Shown here one piece after another: positions 5,379 through 27,020 of a stretch of 64,000 nt of DNA (positions within the stretch are counted from its first letter, which is position 1; each line of letters starts with the position of its first letter). The notes under the pieces are model-generated. The model was given only the letters and a program-made list of their open reading frames with translations, did not search any database and was not told the origin of the DNA. Both the position numbers and the translations under genes were made by a program. Source of the DNA: Bryobacterales bacterium (GTDB lineage: Bacteria; Acidobacteriota; Terriglobia; Bryobacterales; UBA6623); contig OY729428.2 of the NCBI GenBank assembly GCA_963422375.2, positions 1,920,001 to 1,984,000 of the forward strand, given 5' to 3'.

Positions 5379-8300
5379 CTAGAAGTACAGCTTCAGGCCC
5401 AGCTGCCCGATACGGGCCGCTTCCGCTGCCGTGATGTTGCCGAAATTATTGTTGCCGAAGCTCGTGTTCGGCCGAAGGAACACCGTGTTGTTGAAGAAGT
5501 TGAAGAACTCCGCCCTCAACTGCAGCCGCACCCGTTCGCTGAACGGAAAGTCCTTCAGGATCGACACGTCCCAGTTGATGTAATCCGGCTCGCGGGCGTC
5601 CGGAAGGAAGTTCCCCATGTTGCCGAAGGTGAAGTCCGGCGGCTGCTCGAACGCGTCGGCGTTGAAGTAGGGCTTGCCCCCGAACCGCCCGCCCAGCCGC
5701 TCGGTGACATTGCCTGCGGTCTCTGGCAGCTGCCCGAGCACACGGTTCGGCGTCTGGCGTCCGCCGAAGGCGTTGAGGTTGTTGAACCGCGAGGTGATAC
5801 CGACAGGCAGCCCGCTCTGCATCGTGGTGACGCCGCTGATGTTCCAGCCGCCGAGAACTTGGTTGACCCAACCGCCCCGGTTGAGCAGGCGCCGTCCCTT
5901 GCCGAACGGCAGGTCGTACTGGTAGTTGATGACGAGCCGGTGCGCGACGTCCAGGCCCGAGAGGGTCCGGTCCAGGCGCTTGTCGTAGTGGTTCGTGTAT
6001 CCGGGATTCTGCGCGCCCAGGAAGCCGGCCACGGAACTCACGTCGTCGATCATCTTCGACCACGTGTACGCGCCCAGCAGCTGCAGGCCCCCGGCGTAGC
6101 GCTTGCGCATCTTCACCTGCAGCGCGTGATAGCTGGAATGGAACTCGTAGCCACGAGGTGTGTTGAGACCTGAGTAGTGCGGATACGGGCGAAGGAGTTG
6201 GCCAACGGCGATCGTCTGTCGGCCCAGCCCTAAGTTGCTGGGGATAACCCCGAAGAAGGGATTGTCCACCCGGTCGTTGAGCCGGTCGCCCATCGACTGG
6301 TACTGGTTCGGCAGCTGGTTGAACTGAACGCCTGTGCCGAGCAGCTTGACCCCGGAGTTGCCGGCGTAGGCCACGTCGATCAGCCAGCTCTCCGGCAGCT
6401 CGTACTGGACATTGAAGTTCCACTGGATCGAGTACGGCGTGCGGTCCGTCCGTACGATGGCGGCCGGTCCCTGCCCGAGAAACGTCGCCGACCCCTCGGC
6501 GCCGTTCGACGGAGCGACGAAGCCTAGGGGGAATGGATCCGCTATATCCGCGAAGGGCGTGCGCCCGCCGTCTTGGCTGCCGATGACGGGCGAGATGGCG
6601 TTGAAGCTCACCGCGCCGACGGTGGAGGTACCCGGCCCGAACCCTGTAGTGGGGTTGTAGAAGAAGCCGGCCCCGGTGCGGATGACGAGCTTGTCAGTCA
6701 GCTTGTAGGCCAGCCCGAGGCGAGGCGCGACGTTGTTGTTGTCGTAATTCTTGATGTGCCGGGGCTTGCCGCCGACGCCGGCGAACTCGAGGCCGCCCAG
6801 CACCTGGCGCTCCATGCCCGCGGTGTCGATCGCGAGCTCGGGCTGCTGCAGGTTGAAATCGAACCAGCTGGCTCGGTTGTACCGCTCGGTGATCGGACGG
6901 TCCTGGTCCCACCGCAGCCCGACGTTCAGCGTCAGCCGGTCGGAGACTTTCCAGTCGTCCTGAAGGTAGAAGCCCCAGTAGGGCGTCTGCTGCGAGAGCG
7001 ACGGCTCGAAGCGCATCCGGCCGCCGTTCATCAATCCGAGCAGCATGCTGGCGACAGAGTTCCCCTCCTGACCGCGGTTGAAGCGCTCGCGCGTCCAGTT
7101 GCGGTTGAACTGGAAGAAGCCCGCCGGGTCGGCCGGCCGGTGATTCGACACGCGGTTGAGGCGGAACACGCCGCCGAACTTGATCGTGTGGTCACCGAAC
7201 AGCCGCGACATGTCGCCCACCCAGGTGTGCGACTCGAACTTGTTGCCGATGTACCAGAACGCGTTGTTGCCCATCTGCTGGAAGTCAGCGACCTGGACGC
7301 GCGGGAAGACCGGGAACTGGGCCTGGCCGTCGAGGGCGGACGGGAGCCCCAGAGACGAGAGGGCGACGTCCTCCTCGATGTAGCGCCGGGGGTTTGCGTG
7401 GTAGGAGTAGCCGTAGTTGCCGTGCATGACCCAGCCGTTCCAGAGGTAGGTGTCGTCCAGCGTGTACGAGCGGTTGATCGAGCCGTTCCATCCCGAGCCC
7501 GGGGACGCAATGCTGTTCCAGCGGCTCGGCAGGGTGTTGAGCGTCTTGTTGAGCGAGACGCGCACGAACAGATTGTTGCGCTCGGTGACGCGGTAGTCCA
7601 CCTTCGACGACGTGTCCCAGGTGTTCGGTCGTGCGCCGAGCTGCGAGAAGAAGTTGTTGCGGATTCCGGGGGCCGTGGGTTCCGGGTAGTACGACAGAAA
7701 CTTGAGCGCCGTGGCGTTGTGGCGGTCTGCGGGAACCTGGTTGTTAGGGAACGGGTCGCGGGTGCCGTCGCCCTTGATCGTCAGCGGGTCGTGGACGATG
7801 CGGTTGTCCTCGCCGAAGTCGCCCCGCTTCATCCGCGGTGTCGGCACCGACTGCGTGACCGAGGCGGGATTCACCTGCCTGCGGAACTCGACGCTCTGGA
7901 AGAAGAAGAGGCGCTGCCGCGAGCCCGACAGCGGGCCTCCCAGCGTGCCCCCGAACTGGTTGAACCGGAACGGCGCCCGATCGCGTCCGTTGGCGTTGGC
8001 GAACCAGTTGTTGGCTTGGAGCTTGTCGTTGCGGAGGAATTCGTACAGCACGCCGTGGAACTCACTGCCGCCGGACCGCGTGACCATGTTGACCACCGCG
8101 CCTGCCGTCCGGCCGTACTCGGCGGAGAACGCGTTGGTCTGGACCTTGAACTCCTGCAGGGTGTCGGGGGAAGGGATGTACGACGGCTGGTTGTACCCCA
8201 TGACCTCCTGCGATGAGCCGTCGAGCATGATCGAGTTGGCCACGTTGCGGCCGCCGTTGGCCGAGAACGCGACCGCGGAGATCGATCCGTTCCCGCTTGT

Positions 8301-8828
8301 AGAATTGCGGAAGTTGCGCGTCGTGTTGATGCCCGGCGTGAGTCCAATCAGCTGCAGGACGTTCCGTCCGTTCAGCGGGAGGGACTCGGCGGTGCGGGAA
8401 TTGACCACCTCGCCGAGGTCCGACGTGGCGGTCGCCAGCAGAGGCGCCTCTGCCGTGATCTCGACCGTCTCGGTCACCTCGCCCACCTCGAGCGGGATGT
8501 CGATCTCGGCAACTTGCGCGACCTGCAGGATGAAGCTTGGACGGATGTAGCGCTTGAAGCCGTCCGCGGCGACCTCCAGGGAATAGCTTCCCGGCGGGAT
8601 TTGCTGGAAGACGTATGCGCCCACCGCATTGGATTCCGCGCTCCATGGGCGGTTCTGGTCCACGTGCGTCAGCGTGAGCGTGGCGCCCGGGATCACCGCG
8701 CCGGTGGAGTCGGTGACTGCCCCGCGCACGGTGGCTGTCTGAGTCTGGGCGGACGCCGGCTCGACAGCGAGCGCGGATGCCAGCAGGGTGGCAAGCAGCC
8801 ATCCCGAGAGGTTAGAAATTGATCGCAT
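5379..8828 (-). CDS. TonB-dependent receptor, Oar-like, with carboxypeptidase-regulatory-like N-domain
   Basis: Signal peptide, GAVTDSTGAVIPGA, LPLNGRN, EFKVQTNAFSAEYGR, YEFLRN, C-terminal GLKLYF. Confidence 0.93.
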   Translation of the reverse strand: MRSISNLSGWLLATLLASALAVEPASAQTQTATVRGAVTDSTGAVIPGATLTLTHVDQNRPWSAESNAVGAYVFQQIPPGSYSLEVAADGFKRYIRPSFILQVAQVAEIDIPLEVGEVTETVEITAEAPLLATATSDLGEVVNSRTAESLPLNGRNVLQLIGLTPGINTTRNFRNSTSGNGSISAVAFSANGGRNVANSIMLDGSSQEVMGYNQPSYIPSPDTLQEFKVQTNAFSAEYGRTAGAVVNMVTRSGGSEFHGVLYEFLRNDKLQANNWFANANGRDRAPFRFNQFGGTLGGPLSGSRQRLFFFQSVEFRRQVNPASVTQSVPTPRMKRGDFGEDNRIVHDPLTIKGDGTRDPFPNNQVPADRHNATALKFLSYYPEPTAPGIRNNFFSQLGARPNTWDTSSKVDYRVTERNNLFVRVSLNKTLNTLPSRWNSIASPGSGWNGSINRSYTLDDTYLWNGWVMHGNYGYSYHANPRRYIEEDVALSSLGLPSALDGQAQFPVFPRVQVADFQQMGNNAFWYIGNKFESHTWVGDMSRLFGDHTIKFGGVFRLNRVSNHRPADPAGFFQFNRNWTRERFNRGQEGNSVASMLLGLMNGGRMRFEPSLSQQTPYWGFYLQDDWKVSDRLTLNVGLRWDQDRPITERYNRASWFDFNLQQPELAIDTAGMERQVLGGLEFAGVGGKPRHIKNYDNNNVAPRLGLAYKLTDKLVIRTGAGFFYNPTTGFGPGTSTVGAVSFNAISPVIGSQDGGRTPFADIADPFPLGFVAPSNGAEGSATFLGQGPAAIVRTDRTPYSIQWNFNVQYELPESWLIDVAYAGNSGVKLLGTGVQFNQLPNQYQSMGDRLNDRVDNPFFGVIPSNLGLGRQTIAVGQLLRPYPHYSGLNTPRGYEFHSSYHALQVKMRKRYAGGLQLLGAYTWSKMIDDVSSVAGFLGAQNPGYTNHYDKRLDRTLSGLDVAHRLVINYQYDLPFGKGRRLLNRGGWVNQVLGGWNISGVTTMQSGLPVGITSRFNNLNAFGGRQTPNRVLGQLPETAGNVTERLGGRFGGKPYFNADAFEQPPDFTFGNMGNFLPDAREPDYINWDVSILKDFPFSERVRLQLRAEFFNFFNNTVFLRPNTSFGNNNFGNITAAEAARIGQLGLKLYF

Positions 8829-8917
8829 GATAGCCCCCAAGTCCGGTAGCACCGGCAATACATCAATTCGGGCCGGCGGGAACCCCAATATCCCGCGCCA
8901 AGCCCCCCAACGCGACC

Positions 8918-11812: not shown

Positions 11813-13306
11813 GGGAATTATATATCTGAGTGCCGACAACGCCATGGTCCGACTAGAACTGCTGTGAGCAGGGAGGTGGGTGTCGAGCTGGGGTCATTCG
11901 AGTGCGGCCGCGGCGGGCACAGAGGGGTGGGGTGTGGGATCGTATCTGAATCGAGCCTGCCAGCGGATTGGACGAGGAAGGGACTAGAGAGGCCGCCTCG
12001 CATGCGCCGGTTGCCCCGGTGGAACCCGGTTGGCGGTGGCAGGGCACGCCTTGCAAGCCGCTTGCAGGCCCTGCGAGGGCCGAAGACAGCGGATCCCCGG
12101 CGCTCGACGGCCTGCATGGACGGTCCGGACCGGACCGGGGTCGCGCCGGGGCATGCCGGATCCGGTGCGACCCTCGTACCGAGCGTGAAGCGCGCGCCCG
12201 CAGCGGGCTGCCGCGCTCGGCGCGGCGGGCGCCGCTCAGGCCGCGACCGCGGCCTGGCCGGTCAGCTGCCGGCAGGTCAGCGTCCGGCCGACCAAGCCCC
12301 GCGCCATGCGCCGCATCCGTTCCGCCGTCCCGCGAACTCCGTGAGGTAGCGGCCGAGATGACGGACGCTCATCCGGTGATAGGTGCCGTACAGGCCGCGC
12401 TTGAACAGGGACCCAAACGACTCGATGCCGTTCGTATGCGCCGCCCCGCGCACGTACTCGCCGCCGGAGTGCCTGACGGCTTCGTGCGCGAACTCCGCCA
12501 TGCCGGCGCAGGCCGCCGCCTCGTCGGAGCGGACCTGCGCCCCCGGCGCGACCCGGCCGCGCACGAAGCCCTGCAGGTCGCCCTCGGCGGTGCCCGGCAG
12601 CGGCCGCGCGGCCGCTGCGTTCGTGGCGCGGTCGCGCGCCCCCGCCACGGGCGTCTTGCCGACGGGCCCGCGCCCGGCGCGGGCCTTCTTCCTCTCGTGC
12701 TGGTTGCGTTCCTTGCCGCCGACGTAGGTCTCGTCCACCTCCACCGGGCCGGCGAACAGGCCCCGATCCCGCTCCCGGCACGCGCGGATGCGGTGCGCCA
12801 GGTGCCGGGCCGACTTCCGGCTGATGCCTAGGTCGCGGTGCAGCTTCATGCTCGAGACACCCTTGATGCCGGTAGTCAGCAGGAACAGGGCGACAGCCCG
12901 GGTGCGGTAGCCGAGCTTGGTGTCGGCCATCACGCTGCCGGTGCGCACCGAAAAGCGCCTGCCGCAGCCGCGGCAACGGTACGGCATCGAAGGGTGGGCC
13001 GCGTCGGACTGCACGCTGGAGCCGCGGCAGCGGGGGCACGCAGGACCGTCCGGCCAGCGCATGGATGCGAACCACTTTTCCGCGGATTCGTCATCGGGGA
13101 ACATGGCGATCACTTCGATCATTGTGATGCCTTTACGGAACCACTTTCCGGGACCTTGTTTCTTCATTTACGGTATCCCCTACTGGAACTATTCTACCAA
13201 GAAACACCACAGAATGTCAACGGAAATTCGGAAGAAATATGAAATCTTATTATGGCTTGATAATTTTGCCGACTTGATTCCCTCGGCACTCAGATATATA
13301 ATTCCC
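11813..13306 (-). mobile_element. IS1595-family element (1494 bp), copy A
   Basis: Perfect 24-bp inverted repeats GGGAATTATATATCTGAGTGCCGA; 8-bp target duplication AATCGAAA (11805-11812 and 13307-13314). Confidence 0.95.
12236..13167 (-). pseudogene. IS1595-family transposase, frameshifted near the C-terminus
   Basis: CPRC..YRCRGC zinc ribbon, VEVDETY, HTNGIESF. A 25-bp deletion between ACGG repeats relative to copy C shifts the frame. Confidence 0.88.
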
Positions 13307-15229: not shown

Positions 15230-16645
15230 ATGGAACCTGTGGAAGACGCTCAGCGCGCGGCGACGCTCCGCTCACTCCCGAGTGTCGAGGAAGTGCTGCG
15301 ATCAGCCGACGCGGCCAGCTGGATTGCGTTCCTGCCGCGCGAGCGCGTAACGGACTTGGTGCGCGCAACGCTTGCGGAGATCCGCGGTCAGGTCCTGGCC
15401 GGCGCCCCGACCCACGGCGAAGACCCGGCCGAGGAAGTGAAGCGGCGGGTCGGTCGCACTATCGACGGCCTGCTGCGCAGCACGCTGCGTCCGGCGATCA
15501 ATGCCTCGGGCGTGATCCTGCACACGAACCTAGGGCGGGCCCCGCTCAGCCGGGCGGCGATCGAAGCCATCGTCGAGACTTCCGGCTGCTACACCAATCT
15601 CGAGTACGACATCGCGCTGGGCCGTCGCGGACGGCGGGACGTCCATTGCGGCGAATTGCTTAGGAACCTGCTGGGGGCGCCCGCCATCGTCGTCAACAAC
15701 AACGCGGCCGCGGTCTTTCTCGTGCTGAGAGAGCTGGCCGCGGGCGGAGAGGTGATCGTGTCGCGCGGCGAGCTGATCGAGATCGGGGACGGGTTCCGCA
15801 TTCCCGAGATTCTCCAGGCGTCGGGAGCGGCCCTGCGCGAGGTGGGCACGACGAATCGCACCCGTCTAGACGACTACCGGCGCGCGATTGGCCCGGAGAC
15901 CAAGGCACTGATTCGGATTCATCCCAGCAATTTCCGGCAGGTGGGATTCACGGGTCGGCCATCGCTGAAAGAACTGGCCGGGCTGGCGCGTGCCGAATCG
16001 ATACCGCTGATCGAAGATCTCGGCAGCGGGTGCCTGGGCGGACTGGAAGGAACCGGCATGGAAGGGGAGCCGCGCGCGATCGACAGCTTGGGCCAGGGGG
16101 CCGACGTGGTGACGTTCTCGGGCGACAAGCTGCTCGGCGGTCCCCAAGCCGGCATCATCGCGGGCGAGGCAGAGACGGTGGAGCGGATCCGCCGCAATCC
16201 CCTGTTCCGCGCCCTGCGCGTGGACAAGCTCACCTTGGCGGCACTGGCGGCCACGCTCAGGAGCTTCGTGACGGGCCGGCCCGACGACGTGCCGGTGCTG
16301 CGGATGGCGCGCACGTCGGTCGAGGAACTCGCCAAGCGGGCACGGCGGTTCGTCCGGCGGCTCGAGATGCTCCACATGCCGCACGCCGAAGTGGTCCACG
16401 GCGAATCGCTGCTGGGTGGCGGCTCGACGCCGATGCAGACTCTGCCTGCGGCACTGGTGGCCGTCAGCGGTCCCCCCGGGCTTGCGGTTCGCAGGATCGA
16501 GGCGGCCCTGCGCGTGAGCGACCCTCCTGTGATCGCCCGGGTCGAGAGGGACCGTCTGCTGCTAGACTTGCGTACGGTGCGGGAGACCGAAGAGGACGAC
16601 CTCCTCGCAGCGGTCCTGCGGTCCACCGGCGCGACGGACGTCTAG
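15230..16645 (+). CDS. selA: L-seryl-tRNA(Sec) selenium transferase (selenocysteine synthase)
   Basis: LRSLPSV, INASGVILHTNLGRAPL, VNNNAAAV, SRGELIEIGDGFRIP, EVGTTNRT, EDLGSG, PLP lysine motif FSGDKLLGGPQAG. Confidence 0.97.
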   Translation: MEPVEDAQRAATLRSLPSVEEVLRSADAASWIAFLPRERVTDLVRATLAEIRGQVLAGAPTHGEDPAEEVKRRVGRTIDGLLRSTLRPAINASGVILHTNLGRAPLSRAAIEAIVETSGCYTNLEYDIALGRRGRRDVHCGELLRNLLGAPAIVVNNNAAAVFLVLRELAAGGEVIVSRGELIEIGDGFRIPEILQASGAALREVGTTNRTRLDDYRRAIGPETKALIRIHPSNFRQVGFTGRPSLKELAGLARAESIPLIEDLGSGCLGGLEGTGMEGEPRAIDSLGQGADVVTFSGDKLLGGPQAGIIAGEAETVERIRRNPLFRALRVDKLTLAALAATLRSFVTGRPDDVPVLRMARTSVEELAKRARRFVRRLEMLHMPHAEVVHGESLLGGGSTPMQTLPAALVAVSGPPGLAVRRIEAALRVSDPPVIARVERDRLLLDLRTVRETEEDDLLAAVLRSTGATDV

Positions 16646-16649
16646 CGCG

Positions 16650-17057
16650 ATGAAGTTCAGCGTGTCGACGCGAGGATTCACCGACATCCTTGACATCACC
16701 GCGAAAGTCAAGGAACTGGCGGCTGGCTCCGGAGCGGGGGACGGCGTGGTCCACGTGTTCGTCGCAGGATCGACCGCGGCTCTCTCGACTATCGAGTTCG
16801 AACCGGGCGCGGTGCGTGACCTGAAGGAGGCGCTCGAACGCATCGCCCCGATGGACGCCGCGTACCACCACAACGAGGCGTGGCACGACGGCAACGGCTA
16901 CGCGCACTTGCGGGCGGCGCTGATGAAGCCGTCGCTGTCGGTGCCAATGGAAGGCGGCCGGCTCGTGCTCGGCACATGGCAGCAGCTCGTGCTGCTTGAC
17001 TTCGACAACCGTCCGCGTCGGCGGACAGTTCATGTCAGGGTGAGCGCGTGCGCCTGA
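16650..17057 (+). CDS. yjbQ: YjbQ/UPF0047 family protein
   Basis: DIT, GSTAAL..IEFEPG, Y.H, DGNGYAHLRAAL, LGTWQ and DFD motifs. Confidence 0.9.
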   Translation: MKFSVSTRGFTDILDITAKVKELAAGSGAGDGVVHVFVAGSTAALSTIEFEPGAVRDLKEALERIAPMDAAYHHNEAWHDGNGYAHLRAALMKPSLSVPMEGGRLVLGTWQQLVLLDFDNRPRRRTVHVRVSACA

Positions 17058-17119
17058 CGGGGCGTGCCCGCGCGTAGGCCCGCGCAGGCACTCGTCTGCA
17101 ACCATGTTGCATTTTGAGC

Positions 17120-17133
17120 TATACTCGATTCCT
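17120..17133 (+). promoter_or_regulatory. Candidate -10 box (TATACT) for a leaderless selenoprotein transcript
   Basis: TATACT at 17120-17125, 8 nt before ATG 17134; no Shine-Dalgarno. Confidence 0.45.
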
Positions 17134-18453
17134 ATGCCTGGTCACCTCGCCGCCCCTGCGCCGGGGGCCCCCGCGCGGGATCGATCTCTCCGGTTGTCGG
17201 CATCGCGGACGGCGCGCCGCTGCTTGGCCTGCTGCGCGCTTGCCTTGGGGCTCTGCTCCGCGGCCGCGGCGCGTGCCTCTGAGGCCGTCACGTGGATCGA
17301 GTCCTACGACGAGGCGCTCGCGGAGGCCCGCCGGACGGGCAAGCCGATCTTCCTCGAATTCCGGTGCGCGCCCTGAAGGGCCGGGAGGGAATTCGACGCA
17401 CAGGTTGTGCTGACCGACGAAGACACCAAGCGGGGGCGCCTGCTGCGGCAGTACGTAACCGCGCGTATCACGCGGATGGACCGAATCAACATCGGGCTAT
17501 TCGACTTCGACCGGTACAACACGCTCTACTTTTTCGCGCTCAACGCGGACGAGCAGATTTACCTCCGATACGGAGGTCGGGACGAAAGGTCTGCCACGAC
17601 CTACCTGGACCTCGAGAGCCTAGAGCTTGCGCTCGAGAGGGGGCTCGATCTGCATCGTCGCTATCTCGTCGGCAAGCTGCCCCGGAAACCGGTGCCGCCA
17701 GCCCGGTACCCCCGCGAAATCCCAGCCCTGCACGAGCGCACGGTCCAGCGCGGCCGCTGCGTGGAATGCCACCTGATCGGCGATCTCGAGAACGTGCAAC
17801 GCGAGCGGGACGGAACGCTTGACAAGCTGACCCACCTATACCGCGCGCCGGAGATCAGGCGAATCGGCATTGAACTGGATATCCCGAAGGGCCTTCGCGT
17901 GGAGCAGGCCAGCGGCGGCGCAGCCGCCGCCGGAATGCGTCCGGGGGACGAGATTCGCGCCGTCAACGGAGTCGATGTCTGGACGTTCGGGGACCTGCAG
18001 TGGGAGCTCGGCAAACTGCCCCACACCGCGAAGGATCTCGGGATTGGCGTCCTGCGGGACGGAAGGCGCGAGCCGCTCCGAGTGGGCCTACAGCCATTCT
18101 GGTGGCTAACGGATCTGACGTACCGCAACCTCTCGGTGGATCCCCGCGTCTATTTCACTTCGTCCGCCTTGGACGAGCGGGAAAAGGTCGAGCTTGGCTT
18201 CGACCCCCGCGGATTTGCCAGTCGGGTAGTATCGATCGATCCGCTGGCCGAGCTCCTCGGCAGCCACCAGCTCCGGGAGGGTGACGTAATTTACGGTGTG
18301 GACGGCAAGTTCGTGGATGACGTCGCCGATACGGCCCACTTGTACATCAAGCTGCGCAAGCAGGCTGGATCCGAGGTAACTTTGCAGGTCCTGCGCGGGC
18401 GCCAGCGCATGGCACTTGCGCTCAAGACGGAGAGGATGAGTTTTCGGAAATGA
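17134..18453 (+). CDS. Secreted thioredoxin-like (Trx7)/PDZ selenoprotein, Sec at TGA 17374-17376
   Basis: ORFs 17104-17376 and 17407-18453 are in the same frame, separated only by TGA. Joined: W..SYDEALAEARRTGKPIFLEFRCAP-U-RAGREFDAQVV (CxxU), IYLRYGGRD, CVECH, two PDZ-like repeats (GMRPGDEIRAVNG, LREGDVIYGVDG). Adjacent to selA. Confidence 0.9.
17392..17421 (+). promoter_or_regulatory. Bacterial SECIS-like hairpin
   Basis: Stem GCACA/TGTGC (17398-17410) with apical loop GGT starting 26 nt after the UGA; possible lower pairing TTCG/CGAA. Confidence 0.75.
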
Positions 18454-18995
18454 ATGCGCTCTGCCGAGCCGTCGCTGCGCTGGCTGTCACGGCCAGCCTC
18501 TGGGCCGGCGACTGGTCCGAGCCAGTGGAGGCCACTGCCCGTGACGGCACGGCGCTCGTCACGTGTCGCGCGAGGGTCGCCGGAGAATTTCTCGTGGTTG
18601 AAGTCACCGCCGCCGCCGGCTGGCACGTCTACGCCATGGACAACGAGCAGAGGGCGAGGGAAGCGCTGGCCGGGAAGATGTCGCTGGGCGTCGAGCGGAA
18701 TACGGAGGTCTTGGTATCGGGCGGCTTGGAGCAGGTCGGCGTCTGGTACCAGAGCACTCCCGACGACCATTCGCAGCCCGAGTTGCGGTGGTACTCGTAC
18801 GGTTTCGAGGGGACGACCCTGCTGGCTAGCCGGGTCCGGCGCACGGGAGGCGAAATGGCGAGCGTCGAGGTCCGCGCCCAGGCGTGCGACAGCGCCAGCT
18901 GCGTTAGCGTCGAGGCCGAGCTGCGGGTGAAGGTGCCCGGCGGCGACGGCGCGGCCTTCGCCTTGGATGGCCTAGTCCCCGTGCGGGGTTCGTGA
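18450..18995 (+). CDS. Secreted DsbD N-terminal (alpha)-like domain protein
   Basis: Signal peptide, GWHVYA, QACDSASC Cys pair near the C-terminus; ATGA overlap with the selenoprotein stop. Confidence 0.72.
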   Translation: MNALCRAVAALAVTASLWAGDWSEPVEATARDGTALVTCRARVAGEFLVVEVTAAAGWHVYAMDNEQRAREALAGKMSLGVERNTEVLVSGGLEQVGVWYQSTPDDHSQPELRWYSYGFEGTTLLASRVRRTGGEMASVEVRAQACDSASCVSVEAELRVKVPGGDGAAFALDGLVPVRGS

Positions 18996-19014
18996 GGCCG
19001 GGCGGCCGGCTCCA

Positions 19015-24420: not shown

Positions 24421-25476
24421 TCACTGGATGGTCAGCATGCGATCGATCGCGCGCTGGGCCTTGCGCGCGACGCCCGGCTCGATCTCTACCTCGATTCGGT
24501 CCTGCTCCAGCGAGACGAGCAGCTTTTCCAGCGTATTCATCTTCATGTACTCGCAGACGGCGTCCGGGCTCACCGGGTGGAAGATCTTGCCTGGCAGACG
24601 GCGGCGAAGCCTGTATACCATGCCCATCTCGGTCCCGACGATGAACTCCCGCGCGGCGGACGATTCGGCGTGCCGGACCATGCCCTCGGTGGACAGGAAG
24701 AAGGCCCTCTGGTAGGGCGAGGTGCCCTGCATCACCCTGGCCATGCAATGGGACGCGCATCCGCACTCCGGATGGATGAGGAGTTCCGCTTCAGGGTGGC
24801 GCTCGAAGGCCTCCTCGAGGGCGGTTTCGCCGATTTTGGCATGCACGTGACAGAAGCCGTCGTAGAGATCCACTAGCGCCGGGTCCACGACCTTGCTCTG
24901 GGCGATCGACACCGATCCCAGGAACTTGTCCGGCAGGAACAGGATGCGCTGGCCCGGGTTGCGGGATGCGGCGTGGTCTAGGACCTGCGCCGCGTTCCTC
25001 GACGTGCAGATGTAGTCGCTCAGGGCCTTTGTGGCCGCGTCCGTGTTGACGTAGGAGATCACGATGCCGTCGGGACAGGCCTGCTTCCAGCGCCGTACTC
25101 GCTCGCGGTCGATGGACTCGACCAGAGAGCATCCGGGCCGGTCCGGCATGTAGATCTTGGCGCGGTCGCCGACGATCGTCTTGGCGGTCTCGCCCATGAA
25201 CCACACCCCGCAGAAGTCGACGCGCGACGCGGGCTGCCTGGCGACGTAGCGGCTGAGGCCGAGCGAGTCGCCGACCTCCGCCGCGACTTCCTGCAGTTCT
25301 GGGAACTGATAGTTGTGAGCGACGATCAGCGACCGCTTGCTCTTCGCGAGTTCGCGGACCTTTCGCCCGGTCTCGACCAGCCGGGAAGTGTACTCGTGCG
25401 TGTAGCGGCCGGGGTACAGGTCGCCCGCCGCCCGGTTGAATGTGTCGTACCACGCAGGGTAGGGCAGTCTCTGCAT
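24421..25476 (-). CDS. nadA: Quinolinate synthase
   Basis: AHNYQ, GDSL, FCGV.FM.ETAK, GCSL, YVNT, CTSRNA, FLPD, C.VH, HPEC, C.YMK. Confidence 0.95.
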   Translation of the reverse strand: MQRLPYPAWYDTFNRAAGDLYPGRYTHEYTSRLVETGRKVRELAKSKRSLIVAHNYQFPELQEVAAEVGDSLGLSRYVARQPASRVDFCGVWFMGETAKTIVGDRAKIYMPDRPGCSLVESIDRERVRRWKQACPDGIVISYVNTDAATKALSDYICTSRNAAQVLDHAASRNPGQRILFLPDKFLGSVSIAQSKVVDPALVDLYDGFCHVHAKIGETALEEAFERHPEAELLIHPECGCASHCMARVMQGTSPYQRAFFLSTEGMVRHAESSAAREFIVGTEMGMVYRLRRRLPGKIFHPVSPDAVCEYMKMNTLEKLLVSLEQDRIEVEIEPGVARKAQRAIDRMLTIQ

Positions 25477-25544
25477 CCCTCTATGCTCCGCTGGCAGCCA
25501 GCCTCAGTATGACCGAACGGCAAGGCGCTCGCACCTCCCGAGAG

Positions 25545-25865
25545 TCAGACTTGAAATGACTTCCCGCATCCGCAGTTCCTCTCCGCGTTCGGGTTCTTGA
25601 AGAGGAACCGCTGTTCCAGCAGTGTCTCGACGTAGTCCAGCGTCATGCCGTCCAGGTACCGGTAGCTCTTCGGATCCACGCACAGGCGCACGCCCTCGAC
25701 CTCGAAGACGCTGTCGGTGGCGCGGGCGCTGCGTTCGTACCTGAATTTGTATTGCAGTCCGGAGCAACCGCCTCCGATGACGCCGAGTCGCAGCAGGCCG
25801 CCCGGATTCTCTGACGCCAGCATTCCCCGGATTCTGCTAGTCGCGCTGGGGGTTACGTCGATCAT
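25545..25865 (-). CDS. Iron-sulfur cluster assembly accessory protein (IscA/ErpA/HesB)
   Basis: GGGCSGLQY and NPNA..NCGCGKSF. Confidence 0.95.
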   Translation of the reverse strand: MIDVTPSATSRIRGMLASENPGGLLRLGVIGGGCSGLQYKFRYERSARATDSVFEVEGVRLCVDPKSYRYLDGMTLDYVETLLEQRFLFKNPNAERNCGCGKSFQV

Positions 25866-26006
25866 CGCTCCTAACCATCATACTCCCGCCGGGATTCCGT
25901 GCGCCGGAGCTGGCATGCCGCGCCGCGGCGTTGGCGGCGGCGGGCATACCCGCGCTCGAGGCGCGGCCGAGCCCTGCTAGTAGAATGGCTGTATCCGGTC
26001 GCGCGC

Positions 26007-27020
26007 GTGTTGACGGACAGCTATTGCCGGCCCTTGCAGGATCTGCGGATCTCGGTCACCGACCGCTGCAACTTCCGCTGTACCTACTGCATGCCGCTGG
26101 ACCAGTACGACTGGATTTCGCGGGACCAGATCCTCACGTTCGAGGAAATTGGCCGCTTGGTGCGCATCTTCGCCGGCCTCGGCGCGACCAAGCTGCGCAT
26201 CACGGGCGGGGAGCCCCTGCTGCGACGGGACTTGGCCGACCTAGTTTCCATGCTGGCTGGAATCGACGGGATTGAGGATCTGTGCCTGACCACCAACGGC
26301 TCGCTGCTCGAGGGCTCGGCCGTCGCCTTGCGCCGGGCGGGGCTGACCCGCGTGACGATCAGCATCGACTCAGTCCGACCCGCTACGTTCCAGCGCATGG
26401 CGCAGCGGGGCAGCTTGGATGATGTCCTCGCGGGGGTGGCGGCTGCCCAGCGGACAGGACTCGTTCCCGTCAAGCTGAACGCGGTCGTGGAGCGCGGAGT
26501 GAACGACGGTGAAATCCGGGAACTCGTCGAATACGCTAGGTCGGAGCGCGTGGAAATCCGCTTCATCGAGTTCATGGACGTCGGCAACGTCAACCAATGG
26601 TCCTCGCGGAAACTCGTGCCGAAAGCCGAGATCCTAGACCGCGTCATGGAGACCCACCCGTTCGCGCCGGTCGCCGCAGCGCGCGGGAGCGCTCCGTCCC
26701 AGCGGTATCGCTACTTGGACGGGCGCGGGAGCTTCGGCGTGATCGCCTCGGTCACGGAGCCATTTTGCGGAGCGTGCACGCGAGCGCGGCTGACGGCCGA
26801 CGGCCGCTTGGTGACCTGCCTGTTCTCGACGCGCGGCCGCGACCTCAAGACGCCGCTGCGGGCCGGAAGCACGGACGCCGACCTGCGCGAGACCATCGCC
26901 GCCGCGTGGAGGGACCGGGATGACCGCTTCTCCGAGGAGCGGCTCGTCGCGATCGCATCGGCCGAGGGGTACAGGCCGGAGTCGGTTCGGAAGCTGGAGA
27001 TGATCAGTCTCGGCGGCTAG
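26007..27020 (+). CDS. moaA: GTP 3',8-cyclase (radical SAM)
   Basis: LRISVTDRCNFRCTYCMP, TGGEP, FCGACTRARLTADG..TCLF, C-terminal GG. Confidence 0.96.
   Translation: MLTDSYCRPLQDLRISVTDRCNFRCTYCMPLDQYDWISRDQILTFEEIGRLVRIFAGLGATKLRITGGEPLLRRDLADLVSMLAGIDGIEDLCLTTNGSLLEGSAVALRRAGLTRVTISIDSVRPATFQRMAQRGSLDDVLAGVAAAQRTGLVPVKLNAVVERGVNDGEIRELVEYARSERVEIRFIEFMDVGNVNQWSSRKLVPKAEILDRVMETHPFAPVAAARGSAPSQRYRYLDGRGSFGVIASVTEPFCGACTRARLTADGRLVTCLFSTRGRDLKTPLRAGSTDADLRETIAAAWRDRDDRFSEERLVAIASAEGYRPESVRKLEMISLGG

Follow-up and report, generated by a model that had tools for sequence, protein, structure and literature searches.

A predicted exported Trx7/PDZ selenoprotein of Bryobacterales is encoded with a DsbD-alpha-like partner and has an unusual active-site register

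The Trx7/PDZ (seleno)protein family NF041199 appears with the motif CxxU as a table row in PMC13188914 and PMC9312934, whose accessible text credits the family to Zhang and Gladyshev 2008 (PMC2398784); by elimination, we infer that it corresponds to the "putative secreted serine protease MucD", likewise with CxxU, in the accessible part of that paper. In what is accessible of the three papers, NF041199 is accompanied by no function, partner gene, CxxCH motif or remark on the register of Sec, and the literature searched yielded no experiments on any family member. The same search yielded no description of the two-gene module reported here, and it returned thioredoxin, PDZ domain, CxxCH and DsbD together only in the accessible text of PMC13188914, in table rows. 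Two other systems come close in part. The DsbD/ScsB systems, as far as the accessible text of PMC3322552 describes them, likewise combine two exported parts, a gamma-like thioredoxin (Trx) domain and an alpha-like Ig domain with a catalytic pair of Cys residues; ScsB-alpha acts as donor to Trx-fold proteins of the periplasm, and DsbD-alpha feeds isomerases and sulfenic-acid reductases. MccSep (ExtKL), a multiheme polysulfide reductase, is likewise an exported selenoprotein, carries c-type heme and has an invariant Cys next to its Sec, the Cys serving as a heme ligand and Sec as the catalytic residue (bioRxiv 10.1101/2025.11.18.688581). The gene analyzed here is a member of the catalogued, functionally unstudied Trx7/PDZ family of exported redox proteins and is still cut by annotation; what is added here is its two-gene module, undescribed in the literature searched, and the corrected active site.

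Within the window (the whole stretch of 64,000 nucleotides analyzed; the features of the selenoprotein locus lie on the forward strand), the Trx7/PDZ selenoprotein gene occupies 17134..18453, running from an ATG at 17134 to a terminal TGA at 18451-18453. An internal TGA at 17374-17376 is followed by ten open codons up to a GTG at 17407, which gene callers chose as the start of a 348-aa fragment, and readthrough of this TGA gives 439 aa with U81. The full-length product matched NF041199 over the whole model (395.5 bits against a cut-off of 300, profile positions 2-389 of 390), with the same architecture of Thioredoxin_7 followed by PDZ domains, the same Sec position, and Sec/Cys pairing among homologues in the CxxU/CxxC motif. 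The gene is single copy in the genome, and assembled contigs from 4 runs of 2 studies showed no differing letters or indels over 17000-19000, although 3 of these runs may be the source sample. A probable signal peptide covers approximately residues 1-48 (17134..17277, exact start uncertain), with a hydrophobic stretch at residues 30-41 (mean hydropathy 2.0-2.5) and an A-R-A cleavage site of the A-x-A type, and N-terminal hydrophobic leaders are also present in relatives. Among the 120 best database matches, 119 were fragments of 303-359 aa or had no N-terminus. An AlphaFold2 model of residues 52-439, built on a 62-row alignment, was compact (pLDDT 93.4, pTM 0.89), and the TGA position falls inside its thioredoxin fold. 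The first-pass annotation of this DNA had described two same-frame ORFs split by one TGA with ten codons open after it, a 439-aa readthrough product with Sec at codon 81, a secreted Trx-fold protein with CxxCH and tandem PDZ domains, membership of the Trx7/PDZ family, and a gene split by standard annotation; the coordinates proved exact, and each of these claims was borne out, that of secretion by the hydropathy, the A-x-A site and the leaders of relatives.

The UGA at codon 81 is almost certainly recoded as selenocysteine, to judge from its retention across loci, the occurrence of Cys homologues, the constraint on a SECIS-like hairpin and the presence of selA, selB, selC and selD; the first-pass annotation had asked whether homologues align through the TGA, having Cys or Sec there, and whether the Sec machinery is encoded, and both proved to be so, leaving its selenoprotein claim unrefuted. 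Of 159 confirmed genome loci, the best 80 served as a comparison set; they come from Bryobacterales and other Acidobacteriota at 50-76% identity, and 79 of them carried TGA at the Sec81 codon and none carried any other codon there, the remaining locus (L051) having no alignment over this codon. The internal codon was never TAA or TAG (79/79 loci), whereas the terminal stop varied. Cys occupies position 81 in 23 of 29 sequences of an alignment of distant members, and single-chain Cys homologues include P0109 and P0124. Within the order, the gene was found in 42 of 101 genomes; each of the 40 full-length matches has a single TGA, joined in one case by a TAG, the other two being broken or partial copies, and 41 of the 42 genomes had a selA match, the exception being G366. 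In a phylum-wide sample, the family scored above its cut-off in 2 of 301 genomes. The genome itself encodes selA (15230..16645; TIGR00474, 516 bits, cut-off 267.9), selB (345.6 against 242), selC, a tRNA-Sec with a TCA anticodon (73.9 against 47), and selD (299.7 against 125), the last as an Ndh-SelD fusion with CxxC (G000:C1 about 1373100-1375400, locus L096), a form described in the accessible text of PMC2398784.

A SECIS-like upper stem-loop, GCAC-AGGTT-GTGC (17398..17410), consists of a 4-bp stem and a 5-nt AGGUU loop, the loop beginning 25 nt after the UGA. It agrees with the bacterial consensus in the accessible text of PMC13188914 (a 3-9 nt loop with G in its two leading positions, a 4-16 bp stem, 16-37 nt after the UGA, energy at most -7.5 kcal/mol), its own energy of -7.5 kcal/mol, calculated in a 48-nt window with the stem enforced, being borderline and not the free minimum. 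Synonymous codon choice was strongly constrained in the hairpin, where Ala was encoded by GCA in 79/79 cases (9% elsewhere in the gene) and Val by GTT in 70/80 (13% elsewhere). Among 83 columns that could be compared across 71 indel-free sequences, the codons of the SECIS-like hairpin took the four highest constraint values (0.86-1.0), as against a median of 0.53 and a maximum of 0.80 for the other columns. The stem occurred in the minimum-energy fold of 41 of the 71 loci. The region did not fold better than its shuffles (z +0.67), and folding energy, not being significant, was discarded as evidence for recoding. The GTG used as the fragment start (17407-17409) forms the 3' arm of the stem. 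The codon on the 5' side of Sec81 (17371-17373) was likewise constrained at its silent site: T preceded the UGA in 69/71 loci, and Pro was encoded by CCT in 49/51.

The N-terminal part of the mature protein is a thioredoxin-fold domain of the DsbD-gamma type (17287..17670), as indicated by Pfam Thioredoxin_7 (PF13899; residues 53-113, E 1e-7) and by its best structural match, the DsbD-type C-terminal domain 3f9u (Z 13.7, rmsd 2.3, 114 aligned). Direct BLAST of this domain against the genome's own DsbD-gamma gave no alignment, but a distant-family profile did find the match (E 9e-10) with no gap at the motif, and placed position 81 on the first Cys of CxxC, 84 on the second and 78 on a Gly. Distant full-length homologues read CxxCxxC in 15 of 28 cases, and 7 of 28 distant loci encode the Sec form C-x-x-U-x-x-C. 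Because of this profile register and the CxxCxxC homologues, we assign Sec81 (17374..17376), on sequence comparison, to the nucleophile position of thioredoxin's canonical CxxC; Gly84 stands in place of the canonical resolving Cys, and Cys78 (TGC, 17365..17367), three residues before the nucleophile position, is extra. The subfamily reads C-x-x-U-x-x-G instead of C-x-x-C/U-x-x-C and has a coupled DsbD-alpha-like gene. The first-pass annotation had equated the Sec residue with the second Cys of the thioredoxin site, which is right for the C-x-x-U string itself but not for the fold, where it aligns with the first Cys of CxxC; its description as a classic CxxU redox motif was abandoned, since Sec stands at the nucleophile position and the resolving Cys is Gly84. 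A second departure from classical dithiol oxidoreductases, in which the resolving Cys follows the nucleophile by three residues, concerns the cis-Pro before the beta-hairpin that is typical of thiol-disulfide oxidoreductases: the corresponding loop reads D-R-Y-N-T, with no Pro in the consensus there, and S-T-P in the genome's DsbD-gamma. Cys78 was conserved in 29/29 sequences of the distant alignment, as compared with 23/29 for Cys at position 81, and in 92/92 sequences having an N-terminus. One distant locus of the 28 (L168) has two in-frame TGAs, reading U-x-x-U-x-x-C, with the first at the position of Cys78, and this replacement of Cys78 by Sec suggests that Cys78 is chemically active. The first-pass annotation associated the family mainly with Planctomycetes; the close relatives here belong to Bryobacterales, and one distant member is named from a Gemmataceae bin.

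Directly downstream lies the partner gene (18450..18995), predicted from fold, neighborhood and fusions to encode an exported 181-aa Ig-fold protein resembling DsbD-alpha and ScsB-alpha; it has a leader sequence, and its ATG overlaps the selenoprotein stop (ATGA). Its C-x4-C motif (Cys146, Cys151; 18885..18902) was present in 76/77 partners and invariant in 54/54 aligned sequences at 36-50% overall identity, and this Cys pair occupies the position of the DsbD-alpha catalytic motif. Pfam DsbD_N scored 21.7 bits on the partner, below the cut-off of 25, and was precomputed in 24/100 partner homologues among the matches listed, while alignment against PDB sequences gave 0 matches. When the partner model (pLDDT 93.9) was compared with 48,161 chains, the top three were ScsB-alpha (6c29; Z 12.3, rmsd 3.5, 140 aligned) followed by two DsbD-alpha structures (1jpe, Z 9.6, rmsd 3.3, 110 aligned; 2k0r, Z 8.9), the next chain scoring 7.2.

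Comparison across genomes indicates that this DsbD-alpha-like gene is coupled to the selenoprotein gene, co-inherited with it and sometimes fused to it. The partner was adjacent in 77/80 loci, the three misses stopping at or near the end of the gene, and in 31/31 further loci that partly overlap the 80. Of 101 genomes in the order, 42 had both gene and partner and the other 59 had neither, in lists compared by eye and among related genomes whose counts are not independent. Fusions of selenoprotein and partner were found in 4 of 270 database proteins screened, namely P0124 (from a Verrucomicrobiales bin), P0125, P0161 and the degenerate P0129; in P0129 and P0130, the degenerate partner has no Cys pair. 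Screening of 8000 candidates for longer proteins fused to the partner gave none, which is weak evidence. In the distant subfamily, no partner was found near any of 28 loci, 16 of which had at least 700 nt downstream, and the family can apparently work without it, since none of these 16 informative loci carries it. Two of the 16 also lack the resolving Cys, and the idea that loss of this Cys requires the partner was rejected on account of these two CxxCxxG loci. In two loci the partner is set apart from the selenoprotein gene, by about 1.9 kb in L037 (6245-8170) and by about 0.7 kb in L055 (6212-6903). The module differs from DsbD/ScsB in having no transmembrane beta domain and in that its alpha-like unit is free-standing or C-terminally fused; the Sec, CxxCH and PDZ domains are in turn foreign to DsbD. 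The genome's single DsbD_TM match maps outside the module, to C2:2294416, and the genome contains a complete DsbD with alpha, beta and gamma domains.

The selenoprotein also carries CVECH at residues 209-213 (17758..17772), a putative heme c attachment motif formed by Cys209, Cys212 and His213. CxxCH was present in 282/282 aligned sequences and in 118/119 cluster representatives spanning the site, and the genome encodes candidate maturation genes, comprising two further PF01578 genes and a CcmF/NrfE-like gene, which scored 454 bits where the TIGR00353 cut-off is 569; an exported protein with CxxCH thus coexists with maturation genes, as in c-type cytochromes. No Pfam heme domain was found in the selenoprotein, an Atlas search with the CxxCH segment gave no usable match, and the fold searches barely covered model residues 145-194. 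No invariant His or Met was available as a sixth ligand (His174 in 269/282), and magnetochrome-type bis-His ligation was rejected because the upstream His200 is not conserved. Coevolution was analyzed over residues 105-432 (328 columns), a range chosen because N-terminal gap artefacts dominated a fuller run, on a shallow alignment (Meff 187). The top pair was M115-I215 (rank 1 of 52,003), whose signal represents one M/I to L/V swap, the L/V alternative having arisen about 8 times on the tree; among the distant members the pair came only 83rd, and M115 is, besides, frequently mis-called as a start. Couplings linked the Trx domain, the CxxCH helix and the inter-PDZ linker. In thioredoxins, the loop after the third strand adjoins the active site. 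M115 lies in this loop and I215 two residues past His213, so that the coupling places I215 near the loop and it is probable that the heme helix rests against the face of the active site. Taken with the conservation of the motif, we consider it rather likely that CxxCH carries a heme c packed against that face.

Two PDZ domains of the HtrA/RseP type follow, at approximately 17869..18096 and 18145..18435, and were recognized by structure and as two PDZ_2 stretches in Pfam. HtrA/DegP proteases have the same PDZ type, but no trypsin-like protease domain (HtrA/MucD) was found here, the matches covering only the PDZ stretches and scoring far below cut-offs; because of this, the two PDZ domains more likely form a cap or scaffold than regulate a protease. 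MamP and MamE, which combine PDZ domains with small heme motifs, gave weak PDZ-only matches far below cut-offs.

Given these features, we put at about even chances that the protein is a periplasmic selenoenzyme, probably with one heme c beside its active site, that is re-reduced by the DsbD-alpha-like carrier; here we infer the binding, the direction of electron flow, the heme and the substrate. Electrons from the cytoplasm would pass through the genome's full-length DsbD, which would hand them to the C146-C151 pair of the partner; the partner would in turn re-reduce an oxidized Sec81/Cys78 center, a service that DsbD-alpha and ScsB-alpha perform for thioredoxin-fold enzymes of the periplasm, and the selenolate might attack a small oxidant next to the heme, such as peroxide, polysulfide or a similar S-S/S-O bond. 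The missing cis-Pro and the apparent cover over the active site argue against ordinary protein-protein thiol exchange, which a DsbD-alpha donor needs. MccSep might serve as a model for possible roles of Cys78, Sec81 and His213; it has five hemes and another architecture, whereas here there is one CxxCH on a thioredoxin scaffold with putative ligation, and no homology is claimed. By this analogy, Cys78 as the sixth heme ligand is a tentative suggestion. The complete arrangement, in which a heme c at C209-x-x-C212-H213 has Cys78 for its sixth ligand, Sec81 is the nucleophile beside it and the DsbD-alpha-like carrier is wired to it, appears unlikely. If true, it would form a direct periplasmic junction between a two-electron thiol relay and one-electron heme chemistry, with the chemistry of MccSep/TsdA rebuilt on a thioredoxin scaffold. 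A family of unstudied function is in any case made testable through a named redox partner, a corrected active-site register and a specific heme hypothesis, and the heme-cysteine reading, if it held, would mean a new link between the Dsb thiol network and cytochromes in the envelope of widespread uncultured Bryobacterales.

The wiring could also run in reverse, the gene pair being a "DsbD without its membrane domain" in which the selenoprotein acts as gamma; the heme would exchange electrons with periplasmic cytochromes and Sec81 with the alpha-like partner, providing reductant for envelope clients without cytoplasmic thioredoxin, or oxidizing thiols into the respiratory chain. Gamma and alpha are a natural pair, the best match of the Trx domain is DsbD-type (3f9u) and that of the partner is the alpha domain of DsbD/ScsB, and the accessible text of PMC8782879 reports a cytochrome c replacing DsbD function. 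This reading is nonetheless unlikely: a complete DsbD is already in the genome, distant members have no partner, and Thioredoxin_7-type folds serve many non-DsbD proteins (structural ranks 2-10). DsbD-gamma, moreover, needs both CxxC cysteines, the second of which is Gly84 here.

A role in envelope protein repair appears improbable. In such a scheme, the PDZ domains would bind unfolded proteins whose oxidized cysteines Sec81 would reduce or shuffle, Sec81 would be recycled by the partner, and CxxCH would be a plain heme-free disulfide or metal site. The DegP/DegQ/RseP type of the PDZ domains and the feeding of isomerases and sulfenic-acid reductases by DsbD-alpha (accessible text of PMC3322552) would suit such a role, whereas the lack of a cis-Pro would not; His213 is, in addition, as invariant as both Cys residues (282/282), as expected for heme c, and the compact single-unit model (pTM 0.89), with couplings among Trx, CxxCH helix and inter-PDZ linker, points away from it. 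More doubtful still is that the selenoprotein works alone, with the partner only a stabilizing or structural subunit or a co-regulated passenger: its absence near 16/16 informative distant loci and the degenerate fused copies without the Cys pair are in keeping with this, but C-x4-C is invariant at 36-50% identity in the DsbD-alpha catalytic position. That the TGA is a true stop, leaving either a pseudogene or two products, a peptide of 80 aa and a protein of 348 aa, in line with the annotation of all close database entries as the fragment of 325-359 aa, we regard as extremely improbable, given a codon fixed in 79/79 loci while the terminal stop varies, Cys homologues (P0109, P0124) that are single proteins, a break inside the modeled Trx fold and synonymous constraint on the SECIS-like hairpin. 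The terminal TGA was also considered as a second Sec codon and rejected, as it is TAA or TAG in 5/77 complete loci and overlaps the next ATG.

Upstream of the module, the adjacency of selA, which the first-pass annotation had highlighted, turned out to be lineage-limited: selA lay within 5 kb upstream in 23/80 loci, all among the closest relatives. It was dismissed as functional evidence, many loci with a full 5 kb lacking selA and some upstream flanks being short. Between selA and the selenoprotein gene is a yjbQ-family gene (16650..17057; TIGR00149, 91 bits), found near the selenoprotein gene in 16/80 loci and not a conserved part of the module. A TATACT at 17120..17125, 8 nt before the ATG, is a weak candidate for a -10 box and faintly suggests a leaderless transcript; a similar arrangement precedes the ATG in 23/71 loci, a count that has no chance control, and a promoter/terminator scan at the locus found no site. 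Farther away we take 12277-13167 (-), upstream of selA, to be a transposase-like ORF (IS1595-like), 5379-8888 (-) a TonB-dependent-receptor-like ORF, and 24421-27020 presumably nadA-, iscA- and moaA-like ORFs.

Broken copies of the gene were seen as two pieces 7.5 kb apart (G305:C3:2788514-2797191) and as partial copies (G337:C5:897397-898128 and L051), and in L063 the partner frame ends early; these cases could reflect decay or assembly error. Elsewhere in the genome, L108 (G000:C2:884406 +, about 770-1914) encodes an exported peroxiredoxin-like protein; its frame contains a TGA (W-U-P-F-C), and a DsbD_N domain carrying C-x4-C is fused to it, so that a Sec thioredoxin fold and DsbD-alpha again occur together. 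Six further in-frame TGA candidates in G000, at C1:502794 (-), C2:1527603 (+), C2:3299315 (-), C1:944698 (+), C1:457253 (+) and C2:3590723 (+), have coding-like sequence on both sides; labels among them, which we presume, are peroxiredoxin-like T-G-G-U and AhpD-like C-H-Y-U, while two of the six carry no label and two are paralogues with A-P-D-L-U-S-F-F-W.
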